Source of the DNA: Neophaeotheca triangularis
Taxonomy: Eukaryota
Length of the DNA: 36,074 bases
Direction: 5' to 3'
Assembly (NCBI GenBank): GCA_054600435.1
Contig: BAAIJX010000106.1
Location: 1 to 36,074, forward strand
Every line of letters begins with the position of its first letter. Positions within the stretch are counted from its first letter, which is position 1. The notes beneath the pieces are model-generated. The model saw only the letters and a list, made by a program, of their open reading frames with translations, was not told the origin of the DNA and searched no databases. A program made the position numbers and the translations under genes. This document shows, piece after piece, positions 6,240-36,021 of this stretch.

Positions 6240-6956
6240 TCACGCATCATTCTTAGGAACATCCTCCCATTTCTCATAGAACTTCCCTCCAAGCATCTCA
6301 ATCGCCTTGCACCTTTCCTCCATGTTGTGCGCATTTCTAATCCGCGTAACACCCAAATTTGACCCTTTCACCTCGTCAACCCGCAAAGCCCATACCCCTC
6401 CACCAGACGGCCACCCATACCACAACTCCAAAGTCCAAGGCGCGCCCCACATACTCGTGTACTCCTTTTCATCCTCTACGAAATGCGCACCTATTCGCTC
6501 CAGACGGCTGCAGAACTCGTCTTCTTCTAGGGAATATCTCTGTGTAGGCGTAACTTCAAAGCGTGACAAATTCAGGTAGTCGAGCTCAACGCCATAGCAG
6601 CTGTCGTGGATCCACACGCCACCAGTTGATGGCCAGCCGTATACGAGGGTCCCGTAGCCATTGAACGCCGTCCGCGTAGCCGGTAGAGGCTGGTCGAATA
6701 CATCACCTGGGGGACACGATTCGCTATCGTTATCGCTCATGATGGAATCTGTCAGAGGATCTTCGTTCCGTGTTTGGAACCTATGTAGGTATGGCCTGGC
6801 CGAGGTTCTGACGCCGTAAAGAAGGCCGCCTGGCTTCGTATAGCTTCGCGTCGTAAGGTACGTGGTGGCGATGGCAAGCGCAAGGGCAACAATGCACTTC
6901 CGCAGGTTGGGATTTTTCCAGATCGGTACGTGTGGTGATTTGTTGACAGGATCCAT
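6240..6956 (-). CDS. Hypothetical protein (238 aa) with N-terminal hydrophobic segment and an internally duplicated YGWPxxGGVW...EExCxxxExxGxxF module
   Basis: Uninterrupted ATG-initiated ORF. Hydrophobic stretch CIVALALAIATTYL. Two similar modules: YGWPSTGGVWI...EEDEFCSRLERIGAHF and YGWPSGGGVWA...MEERCKAIEMLGGKFY. Confidence 0.8.
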   Translation of the reverse strand: MDPVNKSPHVPIWKNPNLRKCIVALALAIATTYLTTRSYTKPGGLLYGVRTSARPYLHRFQTRNEDPLTDSIMSDNDSESCPPGDVFDQPLPATRTAFNGYGTLVYGWPSTGGVWIHDSCYGVELDYLNLSRFEVTPTQRYSLEEDEFCSRLERIGAHFVEDEKEYTSMWGAPWTLELWYGWPSGGGVWALRVDEVKGSNLGVTRIRNAHNMEERCKAIEMLGGKFYEKWEDVPKNDA

Positions 6957-7458
6957 TCCCGGGCTCCCAGAAGGTTGAACTAATACTCCTTGATGTATGC
7001 GTAGCTACGAGAACACAGTCGCATTGGTCCTAGGCAGTAGTTGAGTAGTAATAGCAATGAGGCGAGTCAGGGAAGTCGACAAAGCGAAGGAGCAGGGCTG
7101 GGACACACTAAGTACCCATAGCAGCCAGCCTAGGACATCGGCACGTGCACACGAAAAGTGGTAGGTATTGTGACGTAAGATGATATAGATTGACTTGGTA
7201 GAAGGAAGCTATCTGCTATCTGCTACTGACTGGCTGCGAAACCGAGGTAGTCTGCAACGTCTTAGGGTTCACAGACAGGATGACGGCGCGCTATCGGCGA
7301 CTCTTGGTAGGCAGTCGCCCCGCAAGCCCGATGCACCAGAAAGCTTTTCTGGCGCTTACGATTACGTATAGCGATTAAGAACTTGACCATCGACGGCCCG
7401 AGAACGTATGTAGGGTGTCCCTTTTGCCGCAGTGAACCTTCAGAACCTACTTTCAACT

Positions 7459-15858: not shown

Positions 15859-16799
15859 GCTTTAGACGTCTCAGCGCCTCGACTGAGCTATTCGCTGTCA
15901 CGTTACGTCGACGGCGCTTCGTTGGACGGCGCTTCGTTGAGTGTCTGCCGGATGGCTGTCTGACTGGCTTGGCTGTCTGACTGGCTGACTTGGGTGATGT
16001 CTGCAACGACAGATTTGGTTTTTTGGAAGAAAAGGACGGACGTGAGAGCACACGAAACGAAGCACTTCTATAGACAATGCGCTGCCGAGCAGCCTTTGAT
16101 CTCAAGGGTTCCAAAGCTTTCCCTCAACAAACACTCCAATCCTCCTGCTGACGACAATGGCGACGAGCAACGTCCTGACAGGTTGTCGGTGACTATCTGT
16201 AGTCGCGTCGCGTTGCCGTGGGTATTCACTGAGGGATTGCCAGGTTAGTCAAGTTTCTCCGTCGTCGTAAGGCTTTGTGCGCGACTGGGAAGAGGCGCGA
16301 GTGTCACGTATCGTTGTGCTCGTAACGGTGGTCTTCGAGACCGGTCGCCTGGGTATAGCGCGTAATTCGAGATCACAATCTATTCCTGATGGCCCTCGAG
16401 TTCTATACGCATGTGTTGTGTTCCCTTGTCGCACGCAGTTCCCTCCCAGTCGCATGTAGGATCGCGTGCGCGTGTGGGGTCGTTCTGCTCACCTGTGCAG
16501 TGCGCGGAGCGCAATTGATCCGATCGCTGGTTGATGGCCAAAAGGTGGCGGTGACGTTTGCGCGCAGAGTTGTGATGGTAATGTCGTTGTTGTTGTGGGC
16601 ACGAGAAGGTTGGTAGGTAGAATGAGGTAGAGTAACAACAGAAGGAGGGGTGAAGATAGCTAACTCGGCAAGCGTGTACACCTACTCCTTGGCATAACAT
16701 TAGTAAGCATTCATCAAACATCAAACCTCCACCTAAGGAACCTTGAATTCAATAAATTGCCTTGTCTTCAACATCGTGTCAAACATCTTTCTCAACGCA

Positions 16800-17666
16800 A
16801 TGGCCCCGATAGCCACCGAACCAGCAAGTGGTGCCCGCGCCCTCCTCCGCGCAGCCCGAACTGAGCGCCAAATAAAACACCCCCATGCGACCTATACATC
16901 CAGCGGCTCTCTGACATGTAACCTCTGTGAATTACCCATCAAGTCTGAAAGCGGCTGGAAAGCGCACCTGCATTCGACGCAACATACTCTGCGGTTGAGT
17001 CGGGTGAGGGAGGCTGCAGAGGAAGAGCTTAGGGTTGGGAGTAAGAAGAGGAAGCTGGACCTTGAGCCTGAGGATGGGCAAGGGGAAGCAGGGGAACCGA
17101 ATACAGCAGGCGGGGGAAAGAGAGTAAAGGAGGATGAAGAGGAGAAAGTGAGAGAAGAAGCACCTCTGCCCCGGGAACCAGTCGCTCAGCCAGCATCAAC
17201 AACGCCCACCGCGCCACCCACCAACCATGCCAACGCTGATGCAGACTATGCCGCCCTCATGGGCGAACTCGACGACCTCGAACAGCAACCTCCCGCACAG
17301 CCAAACCCTCCAAGCAGAACTTCAATGGCCACAGCAACATATTCCTCTGCTCCCATGACTGCCGAGCAGCTCGCTGCCACTTCTGCTGCTGGATCCGCAG
17401 GCTCGGGAAACACTAAAAAGGATACGGAGGCTGACGAGAAGGTGGAGGCGAGTGCCGCGCTTGCGGGGGAGTTTGAGTTGATGGAGGGGTTGGAGGCCAG
17501 GTTGAGACGGTTGAGGGAGAGGAAAGAGGGGATGGGTAATGTCGATGGAGTTGTTAGGGAAGATGTGACGGCGGTGAGTGAGAAGGCGTTGGCGAATGGG
17601 GATGAAGCGGAAGAAGATGATGATGATGACGACGAGTACGAAGACGATTGGGGTTTTGGCAGTTGA
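16800..17666 (+). CDS. ZNF830/CCDC16-like C2H2 (matrin-type) zinc finger protein, 288 aa
   Basis: ARALLRAARTERQIKHPHATYTSSGSLTCNLCELPIKSESGWKAHLHSTQH, a C-terminal coiled coil EFELMEGLEARLRRLRERKE and an acidic tail ending DDWGFGS. ATG 16800 has a good context (cgcaATG). Confidence 0.85.
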   Translation: MAPIATEPASGARALLRAARTERQIKHPHATYTSSGSLTCNLCELPIKSESGWKAHLHSTQHTLRLSRVREAAEEELRVGSKKRKLDLEPEDGQGEAGEPNTAGGGKRVKEDEEEKVREEAPLPREPVAQPASTTPTAPPTNHANADADYAALMGELDDLEQQPPAQPNPPSRTSMATATYSSAPMTAEQLAATSAAGSAGSGNTKKDTEADEKVEASAALAGEFELMEGLEARLRRLRERKEGMGNVDGVVREDVTAVSEKALANGDEAEEDDDDDDEYEDDWGFGS

Positions 17667-19729: not shown

Positions 19730-21962
19730 TTAAATGTCCAAAGCCCCGCCTAAGCGACTGGCTCCTCGCCCGCCCATTCCAGGTCGTTGACTACTACCGT
19801 CTTCTTTCCCTCTTCCCATGACCAGACTCAACAAATCTTCATCACCGCCCTCACTGCCAGCCTCACTACCACTGTCGCCGCCCATTCCATCCTCATCGTC
19901 CCGATCGCCATCAACCCCATCATCCTTCCTGCGATCTTTCCCAGCCACAGCCAAAAGGCACCCCCCGAAAAACGTCTCCAGCCCCTCGATCCCGATGCCT
20001 TCCTCCCCATCCATCGGCCAAACCCCAGCAACATACTGATCCGGTCTTACCACCACAAGACAGCCGGCCTCCTCACTAACCCCCCTGTCCGCAAAAAACG
20101 TCCCACCGCCAAAATTATAACTAACCTCATCCGTGAATACCTTTTCAAAATCTTTCAACCCATACTTCCCTTTCCGCGGGAACAGTATTGACGGGAATTC
20201 TGTAATGGCGTAATTCAACCTGCTATGTTCTTTAGACAAGATGCAGCGGACGTCGAGGACGGAGTCGGGGTCGCGGTCGCGTGGGGTATAGCGGGGGACC
20301 AGAGTGCGGTTCAGCCAGGTGCAGGTTTTGTATAAGGGTCCGCTTGGGTCGGTGGGGGGGGAAGAGGCCGGGCTGAAAAGGAGGATGCGCCACCGGCCGT
20401 CGGCTTTGAGGATGTGACCCAGTTGGAGGGGTTTGGCGTCTGCGAGGCGCAGGACTTGGGCCGAGTGGAAACGTTGGCCGATTGGGATGCCAGTAGCGAG
20501 ATGTTGGTGGGTTGTTGTTGCAGAGGTTAGGCGGGAGGGTGGGTAGACTGTTTCTAGACCGGCCATGAAGCGGCCTTGGCGGGTAAAGTAGGTTTGAAAG
20601 AGGGCTGGATCGATGGCCTGTTCTTCTTTTTCTTTCTTGTGGGCAGTGCTACTGGGCTTGGCCGCAAACATGGAAGAAATTTCGCGGTCAAAGTCGATGA
20701 GGGTTTTGGCTATTGATTGCCGTTCGGTTGTGTATGTGTGGAGGAGGGAGGGAGGGGATGTGCCGTGGAGTACGGAGGCTAGTTTCCATCCCAGATTGTA
20801 GGTATCGTTCATGCTCACGTTCATCCCTTGGCCGGCTTTTGCCGAGTGAGTGTGGCATGCATCTCCAGCTATAAAGACTCGAGGATCACGAGTGGCCTTT
20901 TCTTCCAATGGGACATCATCGAAGCGGTTGGTGAGGCGTTGACCCACTTCGTAAAACGACCAGTGGCAGACCTCTTTGACGTCTAGGGTGTAAGGGTGAA
21001 AGATGCGTTGAGCGCGGTCGATTAGGATGTCTGGGGTAATATTTTTGCTGGCGATTCGTTCGTTTTGTTGGAGTTTGTCGAGTTCGATGTACAGGCGTAT
21101 CATGTAGCCGCCTTCTCGGGGGATGATCAAAATACTGCCTTCGTTGGCGGAGTGTATAGCGCTTTTCAGTCGCAAATCGGGAAAGTCCGACACGACCAGG
21201 CAATCCATTACTCCCCAGCCTTGATTCGCGGCATCCCCTTTTAATTCTAATCCGAGTGATTGTCGTACTTTCGACCGTGCTCCATCGCAGCCTACTACGT
21301 ACTTTGCGTGGACGACCTCTTCTTCCCCACCTTTTTTCTTCACCCTTACCTCAACTGGCTCGGCTTCGCTTGATGGCACTTTCAACCCAACCATACTCCT
21401 ACCGTACGTCGGCTCCAGCCTTGTCGGACTCCACTTCATAGCCTCGAGCTAGAATAACCACAGAGTCAGCAACCACACACTCCAACCCCTTCCCAACCAT
21501 GGGAGGTCAAGCCATACTCACCCAAAAATCATGCAACCTAGCCTGATTAAGGATGACATGAGGAAATTCACTCAACCCATCCTCGGTATCCCTTATCCTC
21601 CCCGACCTCCTCAGCTCACCATCCTCACCAGGACTCCAGAATGTCGTCTCGTTCACCCAATACGCCTCTTTAAGCACCTTGTCAGCAAAGCCAAAAGCCT
21701 CGAAGATTTCCACAGTCCGGCATTGGAGACCGTCCGCTTGGCCTTGTTCAAGACGACCGGGTTTACTTTCGATGATGCGGGTGGTGATGTCGGGGAACTG
21801 GGCGAGTTGAGAGGCGAGTAAGAGGCCGGCGGGGCCTGAGCCGATTACTAGGACGTCGACGGTTTCAGGTAGGGAGGTCTGGAAGTCGGGCTCGCTGGCG
21901 TGCGGGTATTGCAGTTTGAGCGGGTCGCTGGAACCGAGGAAGCCGTTGAGGTGGAATTGCAT
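19730..21962 (-). CDS. FAD-dependent phenol/3-hydroxybenzoate hydroxylase (PheA/MobA family); exons 21962-21522, 21448-19730; ~719 aa
   Basis: DVLVIGSGPAGL, GQADGLQCRT, YVVGCDGARS, RVFIAGDACHTHSAKAGQGMNVSMNDTYNLGWKL and the C-terminal dimerisation-domain motif LVVVRPDQYV. A 73-nt phase-0 intron gtgagt...gctgac...tag (21521-21449). Confidence 0.95.
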
Positions 21963-22055: not shown

Positions 22056-22065
22056 TTATATATAT
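22056..22065 (-). promoter_or_regulatory. Candidate TATA box for the hydroxylase gene
   Basis: ATATATATAA on the minus strand ~95 bp upstream of ATG 21962, in the divergent intergenic region. Confidence 0.45.
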
Positions 22066-22453
22066 GCATTCGCCGGAAGGTGCTCGATAGGCTTTTGGTC
22101 GTACCTGCCTCTGCATTATGGTCTTGTTCGGCGACTGCTTGGGATAACGTTACGTGTTGAGGCTCTAGGTACGATCCAAGTGCCTACATGTGTATACCTT
22201 GTCGACACCAACGTGCGCGTCCTACCTAACTCGACGTTGAAATGCGGCGACTTAGCGAATGCATTGTTCATTATTGGATTTGACCGACGATGTCTTCGGT
22301 TCGGATGTTGTTGGAGACAAGTCCGACGCCAGCGTGGAAAGCTCCCCGATATGGTCGAGTGGGGGCGGGGGGAAAGAACAGCTTCAAGACAGCGACAGCA
22401 AGACTTAGGTACCTTAGTTATACCACCGACCTTCCCCAGCCAAACCCACAACC

Positions 22454-23149
22454 ATGGCGCCGACCGAGCCACACCCTTCCACCAACAACACCTCCATCCT
22501 CTCGCCTACCCTCGCCCCCCTAAAACCCGCCTTCCCGTCTCCAACCCCCAAGCCCAACGACCCAACAACGCTCGAAACCCCCGCGATCCAATCCCTCATC
22601 ACCTCCCTCTCCCTAACCCCACACATCGAAGGCGGCTACTTTGTCGAAACCGACCGCGATCCGCAACGCGTACCCAACCCCTTCACCACCGACGCCTCCA
22701 ACAGCAGCTCCCCCTCCTCAACCCGCGCAGCCTCAACCTCAATCCACTACCTCCTAACCCCGGCCTCGCCCCTGGGTCACTTCCACTCCAACCGCGCCCG
22801 CACAGTGCACACCCTACACAAAGGCCGCGGGCGGTACGTACTAATCCACCCGCCTTGGACGCAAGCCGACGGCAGAACCCGCGTGGAAACTTTTCTCGTC
22901 GGCCAAGACGTCGCGGCGGGAGAGAAGCTGCAGTGGGTTGTCGAGGGCGGGGTTTGGAAAGCGACGTTCTTGCTTCCCGATGAGGCTGGGATTGAAGGGA
23001 GTGGGAGCGGGGAGGGCTTGTTGATTTCTGAGACGGTGGTGCCCGGGTTTGAGTACGAGGACCATGATTTCTTGAGTGAGGGGGGGATGAGGGAGTTGGT
23101 CGGGGAGGACGGGGTGGGGGAGTTGGGGTGGTTGGTTAGGAGGGACTGA
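22454..23149 (+). CDS. DUF985 / Cupin_5 family protein (YML079W-like), 231 aa
   Basis: LSLTPHIEGGYFVETDR, STSIHYLLT...GHFHSN..RTVHTLHKG, GEKLQWVVEGGVWKA, LISETVVPGFEYEDHDF. Confidence 0.92.
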   Translation: MAPTEPHPSTNNTSILSPTLAPLKPAFPSPTPKPNDPTTLETPAIQSLITSLSLTPHIEGGYFVETDRDPQRVPNPFTTDASNSSSPSSTRAASTSIHYLLTPASPLGHFHSNRARTVHTLHKGRGRYVLIHPPWTQADGRTRVETFLVGQDVAAGEKLQWVVEGGVWKATFLLPDEAGIEGSGSGEGLLISETVVPGFEYEDHDFLSEGGMRELVGEDGVGELGWLVRRD

Positions 23150-28694: not shown

Positions 28695-29296
28695 GGGAGT
28701 TTAAGCTTGATATGAAAGTGTACGATTAACGGCAGAATCCGAGGTTTACGTCCTTTATTTACGTCCTTTATTTATTACCTGAATCCTAGCTTGACGGTTT
28801 CGTTCGCTTTTCGCTCCTGAATGATGATTATCTTGGGTTGCCGGTGAGATCTCGCCAGCGAGACTGTCTTGGTCCGGGTCTCCATCTCTACGCTTGAGTG
28901 GCTTTTCTTTGTGTTTCCGACATTTCAATGGCGCGTGGCATCTTCGATTTTTGGTTGCAAGTTCGAAGTTGTCGAGTTACCAGGCAATGGGCGATTGCTC
29001 CTAATACCATAGGCGAGAGATCGCTATACGTGCCAAGACTTGGGATAGCTCCTCCCAGCTGTAGCTCGTAAAAGATTGCGACTTCACAATCTCCAGCTCT
29101 TGTCTCCTCGCTACGCCAATCTTCGGATCTCTTCAGATTCACGTCGCTACAATCTCGGAATGCCTGCCAACTAGAGAGAGCTCCTTCAAAGTCCCATCGC
29201 CACGCATAGACTGCTGCATTGCAACAGGCGCATTTCGAACCGAGGACTCCTCACCACCATTACCCGAAGCGTCTTCGAGAGCGTTCGAGGACAAAC

Positions 29297-31369
29297 ATGG
29301 CCGACACAGCGACACAACACATCAGAGACGACAATAGCAACAATAACAACAATACCAACAACCCAAACAGCAATGCCACTGCCGCCTCAACCCCCGGCTC
29401 TGACGGTGGTGGGCCAGGCGGCACCAAAGTCGCCAAAGATCGCAACTGTCCTTTCTGTGGACAAGCCTTCACCTCAAGCAGTCTCGGTCGCCACCTAGAC
29501 CTCTACATCAAACCAAAGAACCCAAAACCACCGGACGGCGTTCACGACTTGGCTGAGATTCGCAAGCTGCGCGGCGGCATCACGCGCAGACAGCCACGCG
29601 CGAGCTTGAGGGCAGCAGGGACTAGCGACGATGGCGAGGTGACGGCTGGTGGGACCCCTAAGAGTGCATCCCTGCAGTCAGGGAAGAGAACGTGGGAGCA
29701 GCGATGGAGCGACAGCGGGAATGCAATGCCTTCACCTGAACCGCAAAGCGCGAGGGAACAGACGGCGCCCCGGTACAACAATGTGAATGCGCCCAACTGG
29801 CAGGCTACAGGGGTGATCAACAATCTCCCACCAAGAGCGCCTTCGAGGAGTAATGGAAACACACCTGCACCTCAGCAACAGAGTAGTCAGGCGCAGAGGA
29901 TTCAAGACATGCGCCGCGATGGTGCTGGGAACAGGACACAGCGACCTGGCGAATTTGAGCGTGACGATACGCGTAAATTGCAAGAGTCGGTCGAGACTGG
30001 TCGTGCGGCGGAGTTGGCTTTGCGGGAGGTGTTGGGTAGCTTGGATGCAGCAAGGACTCGCACGCAGCCAAAGTTACTTTTCGAGAACTTCGACTTCTTC
30101 TCCCTGACCTTTGGCGGTCTATGCTTGGCCATTTTGCCACAACCGAGCACCCTCTTCAGCGCAACGCCTTTTGCCTCGCCAGACTCTTGCACCATCCAAC
30201 CTCCCGGCAAAATGCAGCTCGACGTGCTCACGCGTCTAGTATGGGAGCGTGTTGTCCAGCGAAGGAACGGCTCGCACGAGAATCGCCACCTCTACAGCAA
30301 CTCGGACGTCTTCAAACATCAGACTCACGTCCAAGGCGCTTGGGAACATTGGGCCAACATGGGAGAAAGCCAGCGTCACGAAGCCTGGACAATCGAGTGC
30401 CTGCGCGCCTTCTCTCAATCTCAACAACACGTCGCCCGCTTGCAAACCCAACTAGCCGAAAGCGAACAACGCGTTGTACATCTCGAAGCCGAATACGACC
30501 GACTAAGCAAATGCCAACTCCCACGCGAAAACCTTCTCGGCCTTCCCCAAACAACCTTCATCTCCGACCCCTTTGTGCGCGAACTCAACAAAGCCAACCG
30601 CCCAGTACCACGAACGTCAAATCAAATCCCCAACCCCTCCGACACCACTCCAACTTCCTTCGACCCCGAAGCTCTCCTGACAAAATGGCGCAACATCGTC
30701 CGCACATCCTCGCGCCACCACCAACAACCCCACCTCAACAACCCAGCCTCCACGCGCTCCCACGCTTGGAACTCCCCAATTCCTTCCGCCTCGAACCCGC
30801 CCAAGAACCGCGCTCCTGCTGAAGAAATCGGTGGGGCGATGATCATGTCTGGCAGCATTTTCAATGTCAATGGCGCCATGCCGAGGCAGGGTGATGATGC
30901 CGTTAACCCTGGGACTGACAATTATCAGTCTCATGGCCGTGATTACGGGAGAAGAGCGATTGGTGCTGCTGCTAGGGGAGGTAATTGGGGAGGTGGCTCG
31001 GGTTGGGGGAATGAGATTGTCGATTATCAGACTCCCGTTAATCCTGGGACTGTTGTGGGTTCTGTGGGAGATCCTGAAGGGGAAGGGGAGGAAGATGACC
31101 TGGCTGGTGGAGGAGCAAGGAAAGGACGTGGGTTTGCTGGAGGACGTGGGGCGGGTGAGAATGGTGGAAATGGCGGTGGGGTTAATGTTGGTGCTGACGA
31201 GGACGATGATGAGGATGCTGAGGGTGAGGAGGAGGACGGTGATGGTAGTGGTCCTTTTGATGAGTACCTTGGGAGGAGAAATGGGAGTGCCGCTGCTAAT
31301 GCCAATGGCAAAAGGCCTTTAAGTGGGGATATGAGGGGTAGAGGTTCGAAGGTTGCGAGGGAGAGGTAG
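29297..31369 (+). CDS. Conserved fungal hypothetical protein (~690 aa) with N-terminal CPFC...H zinc-finger-like motif and a coiled coil
   Basis: Long intact ORF; ATG 29297 in acaaacATG context. Motif KDRNCPFCGQAFTSSSLGRHLDLYIKPKNPKPPDGVHD...IRKLRGGITRRQ, then NWQATGVIN, GRAAELALREV and a coiled coil near HLEAEYDRLS. Confidence 0.85.
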   Translation: MADTATQHIRDDNSNNNNNTNNPNSNATAASTPGSDGGGPGGTKVAKDRNCPFCGQAFTSSSLGRHLDLYIKPKNPKPPDGVHDLAEIRKLRGGITRRQPRASLRAAGTSDDGEVTAGGTPKSASLQSGKRTWEQRWSDSGNAMPSPEPQSAREQTAPRYNNVNAPNWQATGVINNLPPRAPSRSNGNTPAPQQQSSQAQRIQDMRRDGAGNRTQRPGEFERDDTRKLQESVETGRAAELALREVLGSLDAARTRTQPKLLFENFDFFSLTFGGLCLAILPQPSTLFSATPFASPDSCTIQPPGKMQLDVLTRLVWERVVQRRNGSHENRHLYSNSDVFKHQTHVQGAWEHWANMGESQRHEAWTIECLRAFSQSQQHVARLQTQLAESEQRVVHLEAEYDRLSKCQLPRENLLGLPQTTFISDPFVRELNKANRPVPRTSNQIPNPSDTTPTSFDPEALLTKWRNIVRTSSRHHQQPHLNNPASTRSHAWNSPIPSASNPPKNRAPAEEIGGAMIMSGSIFNVNGAMPRQGDDAVNPGTDNYQSHGRDYGRRAIGAAARGGNWGGGSGWGNEIVDYQTPVNPGTVVGSVGDPEGEGEEDDLAGGGARKGRGFAGGRGAGENGGNGGGVNVGADEDDDEDAEGEEEDGDGSGPFDEYLGRRNGSAAANANGKRPLSGDMRGRGSKVARER

Positions 31370-32031
31370 AGGATGTTGTTGAGGGGGATGTTGATTAGAA
31401 GACGAATGACCACGACTAGAGCATGGGTCTGATAAGGCTACTCCCTTTTGAACGACACACCGGTGAATTGGGCGACCCGCGAAGATCCCCTTACTATCGG
31501 ATCAATCGTAAAATGGAATGTCTCACTATCCATATCTCGTTAGTTGGCAGCAGTGATCGCTTTGAACATTCGGGATCCCTTGGGAACTTGGCAGGTATGC
31601 TGGATCTTGTCCCTGGCGACGCCGTCCTGTGATCACGCGTGTCGTTTCGATCACTCTGGGGCACTTTGAAATCAGCAGTGCAACGATAACTCTACTACGA
31701 GTGTTGTTGAATTGTGAATATGACCTCTTGTTGCAAAACCCCTACGTAACGCAAAGTCAAGAGTGTCACAACTTCAAAGCAGTCGCGTCGTAACAACAAT
31801 GTAATTGTGCCGCATTCCTCCACCCACGCGCTCGGGACCGCTTCAAAAACAACACTGGCAAGTTCAAACCTCCCTTCCCGATATCTTGGAAGCTTCTTCT
31901 CCTCTAAATCGCATCTCGCCCCTCAACTTTCGAGCGAACAACTTGTTTCCCAAGTTCAACATTTCACCCTACCACTGACGAAGAAAGTCACCAATCACCC
32001 ACCCACAAACTTCCTCTCAACCACCATAATC

Positions 32032-33620
32032 ATGCCCAGCAACTCTATCCTCTCAACCGCTTTCCTCGCCCTCTTAACCCTCCCCTCCCTCCCCGTTCCC
32101 GTCCTCGCGGATTTCCCGAAAAACTTCGCCTCCTTCACCGTCAGCCGACTACCCGTCCCCGGCGACAAGAGCCCACCCGCCGACCTGAAAGTTGTCGACA
32201 ATGTGATTGGGCTCAAGAGGGGTAAGGGCAAGGGGACAACGCCTAGTGCTGAGATTGTCGAGGCTATGCGGAGGGGCAAGGATTTGAGGGGGATTTATAA
32301 TCGGGTCGCTGTGAGTTTGCTCTTCTTGAGTTACAATTTTATAGGGGTGGTTAGAGTTGTGATTGGATTGTGGGGTTTCCGGGGCTAGGGATAGAAGATG
32401 AGCTGGAGATGGGCTTGTCGTTGCGTTTGAGATACCGTTGCTGCCCAGAGCTTGCCAGCTGACATTGCTTTAATCAGTACGCCGAAGCTCCTCTTATCAG
32501 CGTGCAAGCGGGGTCTATCTTTCTGGCCGAAGCGACAATAGGAGGCAACGAGTACTCTTTCGTTGTCGACACCGGCTCTTCAGACCCTTGGGTTGTACGC
32601 AACGATTTCACCTGCCTCGATGTCACCAACGATGCCGAGCTCGACCCTGAACTCTGCTACTTCGGTCCTACATACGACCCAACCCTCTCTCCTACTTACC
32701 GACCCTTTCCTGACCACAACTTCAACATCTCCTACGCTGCTGGTGAAAGGCTCAACGGTATCATGGGCTATGAAGAGTTCACCATGGCAGGCATTACCGT
32801 CCCAAACCAAGCCTTTGGCATCGTCGACCAAGCAGCCTGGTACGGTGACGACGTTTCCTCCGGGCTCATCGGTCTTGCCTACCGTGCCCTGACAAACGCC
32901 TACCCAGCTGCCAACCCCTTCCGCACGGGTGCCTCTCTCTACAATCCTCTCTTCACCAACATGTACGAACTCGGCCTCACGGCACCAATTTTCAGCCTAG
33001 CAATCTCTCGCGACGAATCCGAAGGCGGCATCCTAGCCTTGGGCGGAATCCCCTCGATTCCACACTCTTCAACCTTCATCCCAACCCCCATAGTCCCCGT
33101 CGGGATCAACGCCAGCGACGGCACTCTCGTCTACGAATTCTACACCATCACCATCGACGGCTTCGCCTACAGCCGCAACCGCTTCGAGTCGTTCAACCCA
33201 ACCTCTGTCCCCAACGCCCGTCAACGCAGCGTCGTCGGAAACAACACAGCCGTCATCGTCGACAGCGGCACCACTCTCCTCTACGCCCCCGACGACATCG
33301 CCGAAGAAATCATCGCACTCTTCGATCCCCCGGGCTACTTCGACAGCGACTACGACATCTGGTTTGTAGATTGCGACTCGCGGCCACCCAACTTCGGCGT
33401 CATGATTGGTGGCAAAGTCTTTTACGTCAACCCGCTGGATTTGATCTTGCAGATTGGGCCTGGCCAGTGTATTAGTGGCGTGCAGCCGAGTTTTGGAGGG
33501 TATGTGATTTTGGGCGATGTCTGGATGAAGAATGTTTTGGCGGTTTTTGATCTCGGGGCGCAGGAGTTGAGGGTTGCTGCTAGGAGGAATTATCCGCTTG
33601 CTTGGCCTAGTGGGACTTGA
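32032..33620 (+). CDS. Secreted pepsin-like aspartic protease (family A1); exons 32032-32310, 32478-33620; ~473 aa
   Basis: Signal peptide MPSNSILSTAFLALLTLPSLPVPVLA. Catalytic motifs VVDTGSSD and IVDSGTT, plus FNISY, SGLIGLAY and ILGDVWMKN. Intron gtgagt...gctgac...cag (32311-32477). Confidence 0.95.
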
Positions 33621-34169: not shown

Positions 34170-35620
34170 ATAATCATTGCCATCACACACTACACGAACT
34201 AGAGAAGAAACCCCAGACCGGCCACGGCCACTATAATCTCCTACCGCCGAGCCACCCCCCATCCCCTAAGCGCAATCCCTCCACTAGTATAGCCCAAGCC
34301 AAGTTCCTTAAAATCCCTAGCAGTCTCGCTACCTACTAGCAAAACCGACCCAGCAACCGCTGTCGTCGTCGCAATGCTAGCGAGTCGAGCAAATAAGAGT
34401 TTAAGCGTCTATACTTGCCAGGCGGGAGGGCGATAGCGGCGCGTATCTATTACGTTAGCTAGATTTCTCGAGGAACTAGTCGTTGGATACATTTCTTTTC
34501 TTTTTGCCTAGGGGACTCGCCGAGGGTTTAGGCGGGTAGTGGATGTATGTTGTTATTGTTTTTGTTATCGCTAGGTCTTACGTAGGTAGGTATGTTATAG
34601 TTACGGATAGTGTTACGTGATGTTCCGAAGTAGGTAGAGGTTCCGAGGCGTATAGTTTGTCTTTTTTCGAGTCTAAGGAGGAGGAAGAGGAGGAGGGGGA
34701 AGTCGATATCTAGGCTTAGTTTTAGATGAGGAGCGAGCAGTCTAGTAGTTACGAGGAGAGGTCCGTGTCTTCGGGTACGCTTATGTAGAGGCCTAGGGAG
34801 GGGAATAACATGAGGTCTAGTTTTTATAGGTATATACTCCATTCTTCGCCGTTTTATTAAGAATAGGGTGTACTAGATACTAATTCCCGAGTCTAGGAGA
34901 ACAATAGCTCGCGAGGCAATACACCGACTCTATAGACGATTATCTCCTAAGTCTCACGGAGCGTAAAGCGTTAGTCTTTCATTATAGGGAAGAGCGCTAC
35001 GTGTCAAAATCTCTATTTCAGGGGTCAGACCTTCGTTACTTTAGGCGGTACTAACTAAGTACTACGAAGGTAGATACTAGGGGTAGTAGTGAAGGTGCCT
35101 CTTCGATGTATTAACTAAGGGGGTAGAGATTTGTAAAGAGTAAACAACGAGCGCTTTATACTAACTTACGTATAACTCGAGGGGTAAGGAGATCACGGGA
35201 TACTATAGGTTAAATGAGCTATTTACTCACCATCCCTACACTCTCTTATAATGACGTTAAATCACTCCTAACTCTCTATTACAACGACGTCAAGATCAAG
35301 TAAAAGTAGTAGGTAGGTAGGCGGGCGACACGATATAACGACGTTTAGATCAAACATTTATAAGGTAGTACCTACCTACCTACCTACCTAGGGCCAACAC
35401 ATCTAACATCAACCCTCCTCCTTTTTCTACGACGGCTACCCAACCTAGCGCGGCACAGACGTAAAGAAGCAAGAGAGGTAGAAGCTAATAGGTACGCTTC
35501 CGAGACAGCGTTCAAGTACTAAGTACCCTATACCTCTCTTGGGTAGAGGTTGTGAAAGACGCTTATATATTAGTAGAAAACGATCGACAGCTTGCTAGGT
35601 ACCGTCTTGAATTGTTGTAG
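34170..35620. other. TpA-rich, CpA/TpG-poor degenerate tract (RIP-like), including short (TAGG)n/(CCTA)n runs
   Basis: Dense cta/tag/tat motifs and frequent stops. (TAGG)n near 35306-35321 and (CCTA)n near 35369-35390. No identifiable protein. Confidence 0.6.
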
Positions 35621-36021
35621 CTAGCTGTTCTTCGTCAGCCAAGGTGAGAGAGAATTTCAGAATCGGTCTGGGGATCATCTACCACTCTACTCTGTAGGGA
35701 TGGGTATATGTCGACTTCGTGACAAGGGAAGCGGGAGTGGAGGGAAGATCGTGTGATCCGAAACCATTGATCCAGTATCTTAGGCGTACAGAACTATCCG
35801 ATAGCACAAGGTCGAACTAACGTGAATAATTTGTTCGTTTTCCGAAAGTCTAAGATCTATCATTGGGAAATTTCTATCCTTGTATCCGCTTTGCTCCCTC
35901 AAAAGTAACCCAATGGCAGCTCCCCGAGCGGCATGTATAGAGCAAGCAGCAGTTCGCATCACCATATATATCCAATGGCACGTATAGTAGCCTGGCGTCC
36001 GCGCGGAAAATCAGAAGGTGA

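Follow-up and report, generated by a model that had tools for sequence, protein, structure and literature searches.

A predicted MobA-type hydroxylase gene in the fungus Neophaeotheca triangularis and an old gene transfer between bacteria and fungi

A two-exon gene for a flavoprotein monooxygenase

The window analysed here is the stretch from position 1 to 36,074 (36,074 nucleotides in all) of contig BAAIJX010000106.1 in the genome assembly GCA_054600435.1 of Neophaeotheca triangularis, a black yeast of the Neophaeothecales (Dothideomycetes, Dothideomycetidae). Its reverse strand carries, between positions 19730 and 21962, a gene for a predicted flavoprotein monooxygenase that resembles MobA, the 3-hydroxybenzoate 4-hydroxylase of the bacterium Comamonas testosteroni. 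The similarity between the fungal and the bacterial members of this type argues for an old transfer of the gene between the two domains of life, the direction of which is less obvious than had been supposed in a preliminary description of the locus made from the sequence.

Exon 1 (21522-21962, minus strand) comprises 147 codons, from the ATG at 21962-21960 to the residues LHDFW, and encodes the N-terminus MQFHLNGF, the flavin adenine dinucleotide (FAD) fold with its GxGxxG motif (VIGSGPAG) and the equivalents of MobA Asp75 and His135. It is followed by a spliceosomal intron of 73 nt in phase 0 (21449-21521, minus strand), with a GTGAGT donor, a CTGAC branch-like site within GCTGAC and a TAG acceptor (21451-21449, minus strand). 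Exon 2 (19730-21448, minus strand) starts with LEAMKW and contributes 572 codons (21448-19733) and the stop codon at 19730-19732; it encodes the rest of the FAD-binding domain, the equivalents of the pocket residues Lys247, Leu258, Ile260 and Tyr271, a GDACHTHS motif and the C-terminal thioredoxin-like domain. The intron length is not divisible by three, and reading through the donor would add the residues VSMA before a stop codon is reached. No gap arises at the spliced junction (HDFW/LEAMKW) in alignments with any of the fungal and bacterial homologues compared, and the junction is colinear with residues 144-151 of MobA (structure 2dkh). The spliced product is a flavoprotein monooxygenase of 719 amino acids, and a hypothetical protein annotated in N. 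triangularis (P0003), also of 719 amino acids, is 100% identical to exon 2. The two-exon gene model was thus confirmed, with the splice predicted from the sequence and from colinearity, and the preliminary description was right, to the exact coordinate, in its claim of a MobA-like gene with a canonical intron.

In alignments, the homologues stop 5-20 residues past an FFxGF motif, whereas the Neophaeotheca protein goes on with AVAGKDRRKDDGVDG and further to residue 719. This Gly/Asp/Glu-rich extension of about 73 residues (19733-19951, minus strand) is absent from all homologues compared and gave no Pfam or Protein Data Bank (PDB) match over the tail. It could be a genuine extension that arose after loss of the ancestral stop codon, or an annotation artefact that masks a short terminal intron.

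The Pfam architecture consists of a FAD_binding_3 domain (PF01494; exon 1 residues 35-105, E-value 1.4e-13; exon 2 residues 32-253, E-value 1.3e-46) followed by the dimerisation domain Phe_hydrox_dim (PF07976; 19952-20548, minus strand; exon 2 residues 301-499, E-value 6.8e-52), and exon 2 alone scores 657.6 bits against the NCBIfam model PRK08294, for which the cut-off is 560. The best relative of solved structure is MobA (2dkh), to which exon 2 scores 491 bits and exon 1 scores 181 bits (the latter against residues 1-145), compared with 314 and 91 bits, respectively, for the phenol hydroxylase of Trichosporon (PHHY, 1pn0); E-values of 1e-146 and lower for the structure matches exclude chance. 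The same ranking of MobA above the Trichosporon enzyme had been proposed from a list of motifs, all of which are present in the translations, namely MQFHLNGF, DTEDGLSEFPHVILNQARLHD, SPTRLEPTY, GDAANQGWGVMD and LIIPREGG as well as LIDFDREISSMF, FQTYFTRQGRFMAG, GQRFHSAQVLRLADAKPLQLGHILKADGRWR and KGKYGLKDFEKVF. We assign the product to the MobA type among the class A flavoprotein monooxygenases.

Six residues through which MobA contacts its substrate, Asp75, His135, Lys247, Leu258, Ile260 and Tyr271, are all retained in the Neophaeotheca protein, and the stacking residue Tyr317 is identical as well. In the available excerpts of PMC3546652 and PMC9304392, Asp75 and Tyr271 are described as contacts to the phenolic substrate and Leu258 and Ile260 as residues stacking against it, and His135 and Lys247 are the salt-bridge anchors of the substrate carboxylate, which are absent from phenol hydroxylase. 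In our alignment, His135 and Lys247 are invariant in 45 out of 45 MobA-like rows (nine Capnodiales-type, four Myriangiales-type, two Dothideales-type and 30 bacterial) and variable in the 8 outgroup rows. A phenol 2-monooxygenase of the Trichosporon type (PHHY) was considered and rejected, as His and Lys stand in the query at the positions of Gln and Arg in 1pn0, and the query falls outside the PHHY-type group in the trees described below. From the pocket residues and the precedent of an actinobacterial enzyme, 3HB4H of strain Sphe3 (see the last section), we read the protein as probably a 3-hydroxybenzoate 4-hydroxylase. It would catalyse the NAD(P)H- and FAD-dependent 4-hydroxylation of 3-hydroxybenzoate to protocatechuate, which would then be available for ring cleavage.

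Surroundings and relatives of the gene

The hydroxylase gene is divergent from a Cupin_5 (DUF985) frame (22418-23149, plus strand), and a spacer of about 450 bp, common to both, separates that frame from the hydroxylase ATG. Inside this spacer, at 22057-22065, the TATA-like run TATATATAT precedes the ATG by about 95-100 nt; a TATA-like box had been noted before, and the run may act as a promoter element. Apart from Cupin_5, Pfam identified on the contig a PHD-TFIIS_M-SPOC protein, an aspartyl protease, a GPR1/FUN34 protein, an aquaporin-like MIP and a GMC oxidoreductase, and by their domains these neighbouring frames encode typical eukaryotic proteins. The GC content at third codon positions (GC3) is 0.58-0.64 in the hydroxylase gene and 0.57-0.76 in eight neighbour frames, compared with 0.82-0.91 in three bacterial homologues, and overall GC is even throughout the hydroxylase region. 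Bacterial contamination of the assembly is therefore ruled out by the intron, the eukaryotic neighbours on a 36-kb contig, the even GC and the host-like GC3, so that the preliminary description was well founded both in calling the codon style host-like and in arguing against contamination. The contig ends are AT-richer (GC 0.38 at positions 1-1000 and 0.44 at 35001-36000, against 0.49-0.58 in the remainder). A 719-codon open frame at 29210-31369 (plus strand) gave no Pfam match at E <= 0.001, and the same holds for the frames at 6240-7004 (minus strand), 16737-17666 (plus strand) and 31750-32388 (plus strand).

Relatives were collected by protein searches with exon 2, with P0099, which has the shortest branch among the basal fungal members, and with P0125, an Elsinoe fawcettii protein from the base of the group. 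Each search gave at least 120 matches, and our statements on distribution cover the organism-labelled matches listed. Among the 120 matches listed for exon 2, 37 proteins are named from other fungi, at 58-66% identity (Meristemomyces, Neohortaea, Acidomyces, Zymoseptoria, Friedmanniomyces, Hortaea, Baudoinia, Dothistroma, Cercospora, Polychaeton, Piedraia and Peltaster); two Quercus suber proteins and one protein of a Rhodovulum metagenome-assembled genome (MAG; 57%) are also listed. The search with P0099 listed fungi at 64-70% identity and then bacteria (Sinorhizobium, Pigmentiphaga, Marinobacter) at 62-64%, and that with P0125 listed other Elsinoe, Sphaceloma and Myriangium (Myriangiales), 'Dothideomycetidae sp. 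11243' and Neodothiora populina (Dothideales), followed again by bacteria. Every fungus-named match in the three lists is a Dothideomycete, and the next named matches are bacterial. Fifteen of the named fungi were looked up, of which 14 belong to the Dothideomycetidae and one, Peltaster, is Dothideomycetes incertae sedis; the other matched genera we also take to be Dothideomycetidae. Among the named records, the MobA type as recognised from these sequences would thus comprise three order-level groups of one fungal subclass, plus bacteria.

The two Quercus suber proteins (P0012 and P0037), annotated as 3-hydroxybenzoate 4-monooxygenase, lie inside the fungal clade beside the query, with a support of 98 in the Shimodaira-Hasegawa-like approximate likelihood ratio test (SH-aLRT). 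They are most likely not plant genes; a fungus present in the cork-oak assembly as a contaminant or endophyte is the probable source.

When prokaryotes were scanned at one genome per species, 461 candidate stretches came up, of which 405 encode relatives. The best 80 of these bacterial loci are 52-58% identical to the query over the full length and come mostly from Alphaproteobacteria, with others from Beta- and Gammaproteobacteria and Actinomycetota. Among evenly drawn genomes, 10 of 301 Actinomycetota (one of them flagged as unpublished) and 24 of 401 Pseudomonadota had a PF07976 match above the cut-off; all 30 full-length bacterial PF07976 proteins from these 702 genomes are MobA-like and none is PHHY-type. 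Seven Actinomycetota proteins are 45-57% identical to the query, and 23 Pseudomonadota proteins are 48-73% identical to the Sinorhizobium protein P0279. For P0128, no near match was found among the 301 Actinomycetota genomes, the best reaching 51%. Three MAG loci (L013, L043 and L061), with best-segment identities of 59-61%, were considered as nearer bacterial relatives and rejected as frameshifted bacterial contigs. In these three and in L121, L136 and L137, the homologue is spread over two or three frames and the protein match is gapless; such split-frame MAG or metagenome loci look like frameshifted assemblies or pseudogenes and not like genes with introns. The bacterial MobA tree ignores taxonomy: three Actinomycetota proteins (L029, L161 and L163) nest among Proteobacteria at 71-76% identity, and L205, from a Pseudomonadota genome, falls in a divergent, otherwise actinobacterial clade whose proteins start with MQFHHHGY. 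These placements point to frequent exchange of the gene among bacteria.

The slow-evolving fungal proteins P0099 and Neodothiora are 61-64% identical to bacterial proteins (Neodothiora up to 65%), whereas Neodothiora is only 53-55% identical to the Capnodiales-type proteins (clade A below). Fungal-bacterial identity is as high as the identity among fungal orders, and the nearest other family member stands at 39-45%. Because identities of 52-64% between fungi and bacteria are too high for vertical descent from an ancestor common to both, a transfer between the domains is required. One could instead imagine an ancient, slowly evolving fungal paralogue that was lost outside the Dothideomycetidae and whose likeness to MobA reflects a much older link, and in the unrooted best tree one branch does part all bacteria from all fungal sequences and the outgroup. 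Many independent losses across fungi would be needed for this, an interdomain transfer would still be needed somewhere, and the 61-64% identity, equal to that among fungal orders, is far too high, which leads us to regard such a paralogue as very unlikely.

Phylogeny and the direction of transfer

Three maximum-likelihood trees were computed under LG+C20+F+G4 by the posterior mean site frequency (PMSF) approach, with a short search and SH-aLRT support. In what follows, A stands for the Capnodiales-type clade (Capnodiales sensu lato), M for Myriangiales, D for Dothideales and B for bacteria. The MobA-like group, the query included, is separate from the PHHY-type members in all three trees (SH-aLRT 98, 99 and 96), and clade A has a support of 99-100 in each. 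Within clade A, the query joins Piedraia and Polychaeton (95-98), with a 'Quercus suber' protein in one tree, and stands apart from the Mycosphaerellales. The gene tree follows fungal taxonomy in broad outline, and the Neophaeotheca gene is a long-standing, vertically inherited resident of its genome. A recent transfer into Neophaeotheca alone, or contamination, would account for the resemblance to MobA and for nothing more. The intron, the eukaryotic neighbours on the 36-kb contig and the host-like GC3 speak against it, and the closest relatives are the 37 fungus-named proteins (58-66%, among the matches listed), the best full-length bacterial identity being 58%. A private acquisition of recent date is refuted by the fungal relatives, the genomic context, the placement in clade A and the composition, and we attach practically no probability to either version. 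The preliminary description had set a position within or beside bacterial sequences against nesting in a vertically inherited fungal clade, and the locus shows something of both, as the protein sits in the well-supported clade A (SH-aLRT 99-100), yet the nearest sequences outside that clade are bacterial.

The transfer is old, since it predates the radiation of the Capnodiales sensu lato and, on the simplest reading, that of the whole subclass. Transfers from bacteria to fungi are far commoner than those from fungi to bacteria, and the leading reading, to which we give about an even chance, is a single transfer in the common direction. A bacterial mobA-like gene would have entered the stem lineage of the Dothideomycetidae once, long ago; it would afterwards have adopted the composition of its host and evolved at very unequal rates from one of the three orders to another, while its single intron would have been gained in the lineage to Neophaeotheca alone. 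Besides the prior, the wide range of bacterial holders, the narrow fungal range among the named records and the intronless fungal relatives favour this direction. The intronless relatives are five metagenome loci (L081-L085, four distinct genes) that are 64-67% identical to the query and have a single unbroken frame from residue 1 to residues 648-673, without an intron anywhere in the coding sequence, as expected if the gene is of bacterial origin. Three of them are 82-85% identical to Mycosphaerellales proteins (Oleoguttula, Meristemomyces, Vermiconidia), the other two are 91% identical to another member of clade A, and their flanks are gene-poor. Because these loci are intronless, members of clade A do not all share the intron at codon 147/148; given an intronless ancestor, it is simpler to assume that the Neophaeotheca lineage gained it, loss elsewhere being the alternative. 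The 'domestication' by intron gain that had been suggested for the gene is therefore plausible, but for the Neophaeotheca lineage only. That the transfer was single, that it ran from bacteria to fungi and that the intron was gained here rather than lost elsewhere is what we infer from these observations.

Several results weigh against an origin of the fungal gene from bacteria. Evenly drawn bacterial genomes were used in one tree to avoid query-biased sampling, with distant FAD monooxygenases as the outgroup, and in this tree all 30 bacterial proteins form one clade (SH-aLRT 94). It is sister to the Dothideales pair (82; 89 in another tree), and the base of the even-sample tree is an unresolved node with the Myriangiales (100) and Capnodiales-type (99) clades. 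Forcing the three fungal clades together costs 6.3 log-likelihood (lnL) units and gives a p value of 0.30 in the approximately unbiased test (p-AU; PMSF), so that fungal monophyly is not rejected. Placing the fungi together with the core bacteria and leaving the deep bacteria outside costs 17.4 lnL units (p-AU 0.042, PMSF; the core and deep groups were chosen after inspection of the tree), and nesting of the fungi in bacterial diversity is thus marginally rejected. With the bacteria monophyletic, the position within bacterial sequences that is the usual mark of a bacterial origin was not recovered.

Further tests, with the PHHY-type group as the outgroup, compared whole sets of arrangements, in which the topologies within groups were fixed. 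Among 105 five-group arrangements under LG+F+G4, the best is (A,(M,(D,(Bcore,Bdeep)))), with p 0.79; fungal monophyly reaches p 0.0625 at best, and 28 of the 105 are not rejected. Among 15 four-group arrangements rooted with PHHY-type sequences (LG+C20+F+G4, PMSF), the best is (A,(M,(D,B))), with p 0.936, so that this order comes out best under both models, and fungal monophyly survives solely as (((A,M),D),B), with p 0.128. In the order-level species tree the Capnodiales branch off first, followed by Myriangiales and Dothideales together; the arrangement ((A,(M,D)),B), which that tree and a single ancestral transfer would lead one to expect, has p 0.041. The distribution of the family points the same way, since PF07976 appears mainly fungal: according to the available part of PMC12420386 (Table 1), 232 of 317 fungal genomes (mean 3.96 genes) and 5 of 255 bacterial ones have the phenol-hydroxylase domain. 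The sampled bacteria hold the MobA type alone, with no PHHY-type protein (30 proteins, 702 genomes). Moreover, the basal rows P0099 and P0284 carry no organism label, and the excerpts of the literature available to us report no enzyme assay for fungal MobA-type members.

A tree with the bacteria inside a fungal grade could be the result of long-branch attraction, the branches of the outgroup, Myriangiales and clade A being long and those of Dothideales and bacteria short, and such attraction would yield this picture even if in the true tree the fungi were monophyletic with the bacteria as their sister group. Because the fungi are not nested in bacteria and the best trees put the bacteria inside a fungal grade, the direction from bacteria to fungi is an assumption and not a result. 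Of the old bacteria-to-fungus transfer claimed in the preliminary description, the old interdomain transfer holds (52-58% identity with the bacterial loci) and the direction does not follow. The tree and topology tests that it had recommended placed the protein with the MobA-like sequences (96-99) and did not show the usual signature of a bacterial origin.

The reverse direction is a tentative alternative, which we consider possible. The MobA type would have arisen in fungi, and a fungus near the Dothideales would have given it once to bacteria. It would be a carboxylate-binding offshoot of the fungal phenol-hydroxylase family that originated in or before the ancestor of the Dothideomycetidae, and the gene in the window would be native. 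Bacterial MobA would possibly be the transferred copy, which then spread in Proteobacteria and Actinomycetota through gene exchange among bacteria. This agrees with (A,(M,(D,B))) as the best arrangement under both models (p-AU 0.79 and 0.936), with a fungal backbone equal to the order-level species tree, and with the monophyly of the bacteria (94) and their position as sister to Dothideales (82, 89). The identity of 71-76% among core bacterial proteins across phyla, in a tree that departs from taxonomy, is as one would see for a horizontally spreading gene. One transfer is enough, whereas with a bacterial origin the MobA type and the PHHY type would each require a transfer, two in all. Of the sampled bacterial genomes, 24 of 401 and 10 of 301 contain PF07976, in one type only, against 232 of 317 fungal genomes with about four copies each in the accessible part of PMC12420386.

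Other observations speak against a fungal origin. Fungal monophyly is not rejected (p 0.30; 0.128), the decisive internal branches are short (0.07-0.09) with SH-aLRT values of just 82-94, and long branches of the outgroup, Myriangiales and clade A beside short ones of Dothideales and bacteria form a textbook situation in which a tree of exactly this shape can be false. As a rule, genes pass very rarely from fungi to bacteria. The divergent bacterial clade (45-50% identity) would require strong acceleration. That the outgroup representatives are fungal we infer from the cluster nearest to P0131 (95% Eukaryota), from the solved Trichosporon enzyme and from the literature. Finally, named fungi beyond the Dothideomycetes are without the MobA type among the matches listed, which would imply a fungal paralogue of recent origin or one lost in many lineages.

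A third possibility is that the Capnodiales sensu lato, the Myriangiales and the Dothideales each received the gene separately from different bacterial donors, which would fit with the three fungal clades being ungrouped in the best trees and with Neodothiora being nearer to bacteria (61-65%) than to clade A (53-55%). These identities are explained by rate differences alone, however, and none of the three clades is nested inside the sampled bacteria. All recipients lie in one subclass, with no other named fungi listed, which would be an unlikely coincidence, and we consider several such transfers unlikely.

Significance and comparison with known enzymes

The enzyme family and its reaction are already known, and the novelty is modest: a taxonomically confined fungal MobA-type subfamily, a candidate gene and a transfer of non-obvious direction. 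Our literature searches turned up neither a description of this transfer nor one of a mobA gene in fungi, the supplementary IPR012941 tree of PMC12420386 (Supplementary Fig. 41) lying outside our search. The gene is a concrete candidate for a fungal 3-hydroxybenzoate 4-hydroxylase, whose reaction, according to the literature excerpts available, has been known in fungi since 1969. By the named records, the subfamily is confined to one subclass of fungi with many rock-inhabiting, halotolerant and plant-pathogenic black species, for which the degradation of aromatics from plants and pollutants matters ecologically. It also provides a clean test case for the direction of interdomain transfer, as the best trees differ from the usual bacterium-to-fungus reading. 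If the gene did move from fungi to bacteria, this would be among the very few well-documented transfers of a catabolic gene in that direction, and the textbook MobA of Comamonas and of many Proteobacteria and Actinomycetota would descend from a fungal gene.

An m-hydroxybenzoate 4-hydroxylase activity dependent on FAD and NADPH was partially purified from Aspergillus niger (Premkumar et al., 1969, as tabulated in the excerpt of PMC13653839, Table 1). The available portion of a 2025 review of A. niger names no gene for the 3-hydroxybenzoate step. The activity probably belongs to another protein, because no Aspergillus protein is among the named MobA-type matches in the three lists of 120 best matches each. 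HxnV of Aspergillus nidulans, a 2,5-dihydroxypyridine monooxygenase with a PRK08294 domain, was modelled on MobA and has conserved ring contacts, according to the accessible part of PMC9304392. Judged by this published description, HxnV has Ile in place of His135 and a pyridine substrate, whereas the Neophaeotheca protein has both carboxylate anchors.

The 3HB4H of the actinobacterium Pseudarthrobacter phenanthrenivorans Sphe3 is annotated as a phenol 2-monooxygenase and acts on 3-hydroxybenzoate, not on phenol; it is 49-52% identical to Comamonas MobA (excerpt of PMC13653839) and, by that description, resembles the query as a MobA-type protein. The annotation 'phenol 2-monooxygenase' is therefore unreliable for the MobA subfamily. 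Among the fungal orthologues, those of Hortaea werneckii (P0078 and P0084) and Polychaeton citri (P0097) are annotated as 'tetracycline 6-hydroxylase protein' and other MobA-type orthologues as 'phenol 2-monooxygenase'; both labels are probably wrong for this subfamily. The phenol hydroxylase PHHY of Trichosporon cutaneum (1pn0, 1foh) shares the Pfam architecture and the Asp and Tyr contacts to the phenolic ring with the query, but carries Gln and Arg at the positions of His135 and Lys247 in MobA and the query.

The closest counterpart among the solved enzymes is MobA (MHBH) of C. testosteroni (2dkh, 2dki), with which the Neophaeotheca protein shares the two-domain layout, colinearity over residues 1-626 and the same MQFHLNGF start. 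As a proxy for MobA numbering we used L193, a Pseudomonadota protein of 639 amino acids whose first 20 residues equal those of 2dkh and which is about 52% identical to the query. His120 of MobA, a proposed surface substrate site in the available part of PMC3546652, is Ser in the query, at a position that also varies among bacterial homologues. In contrast to bacterial MobA, the Neophaeotheca protein is encoded by a eukaryotic gene with one intron and ends in a low-complexity C-terminal extension of about 73 residues.

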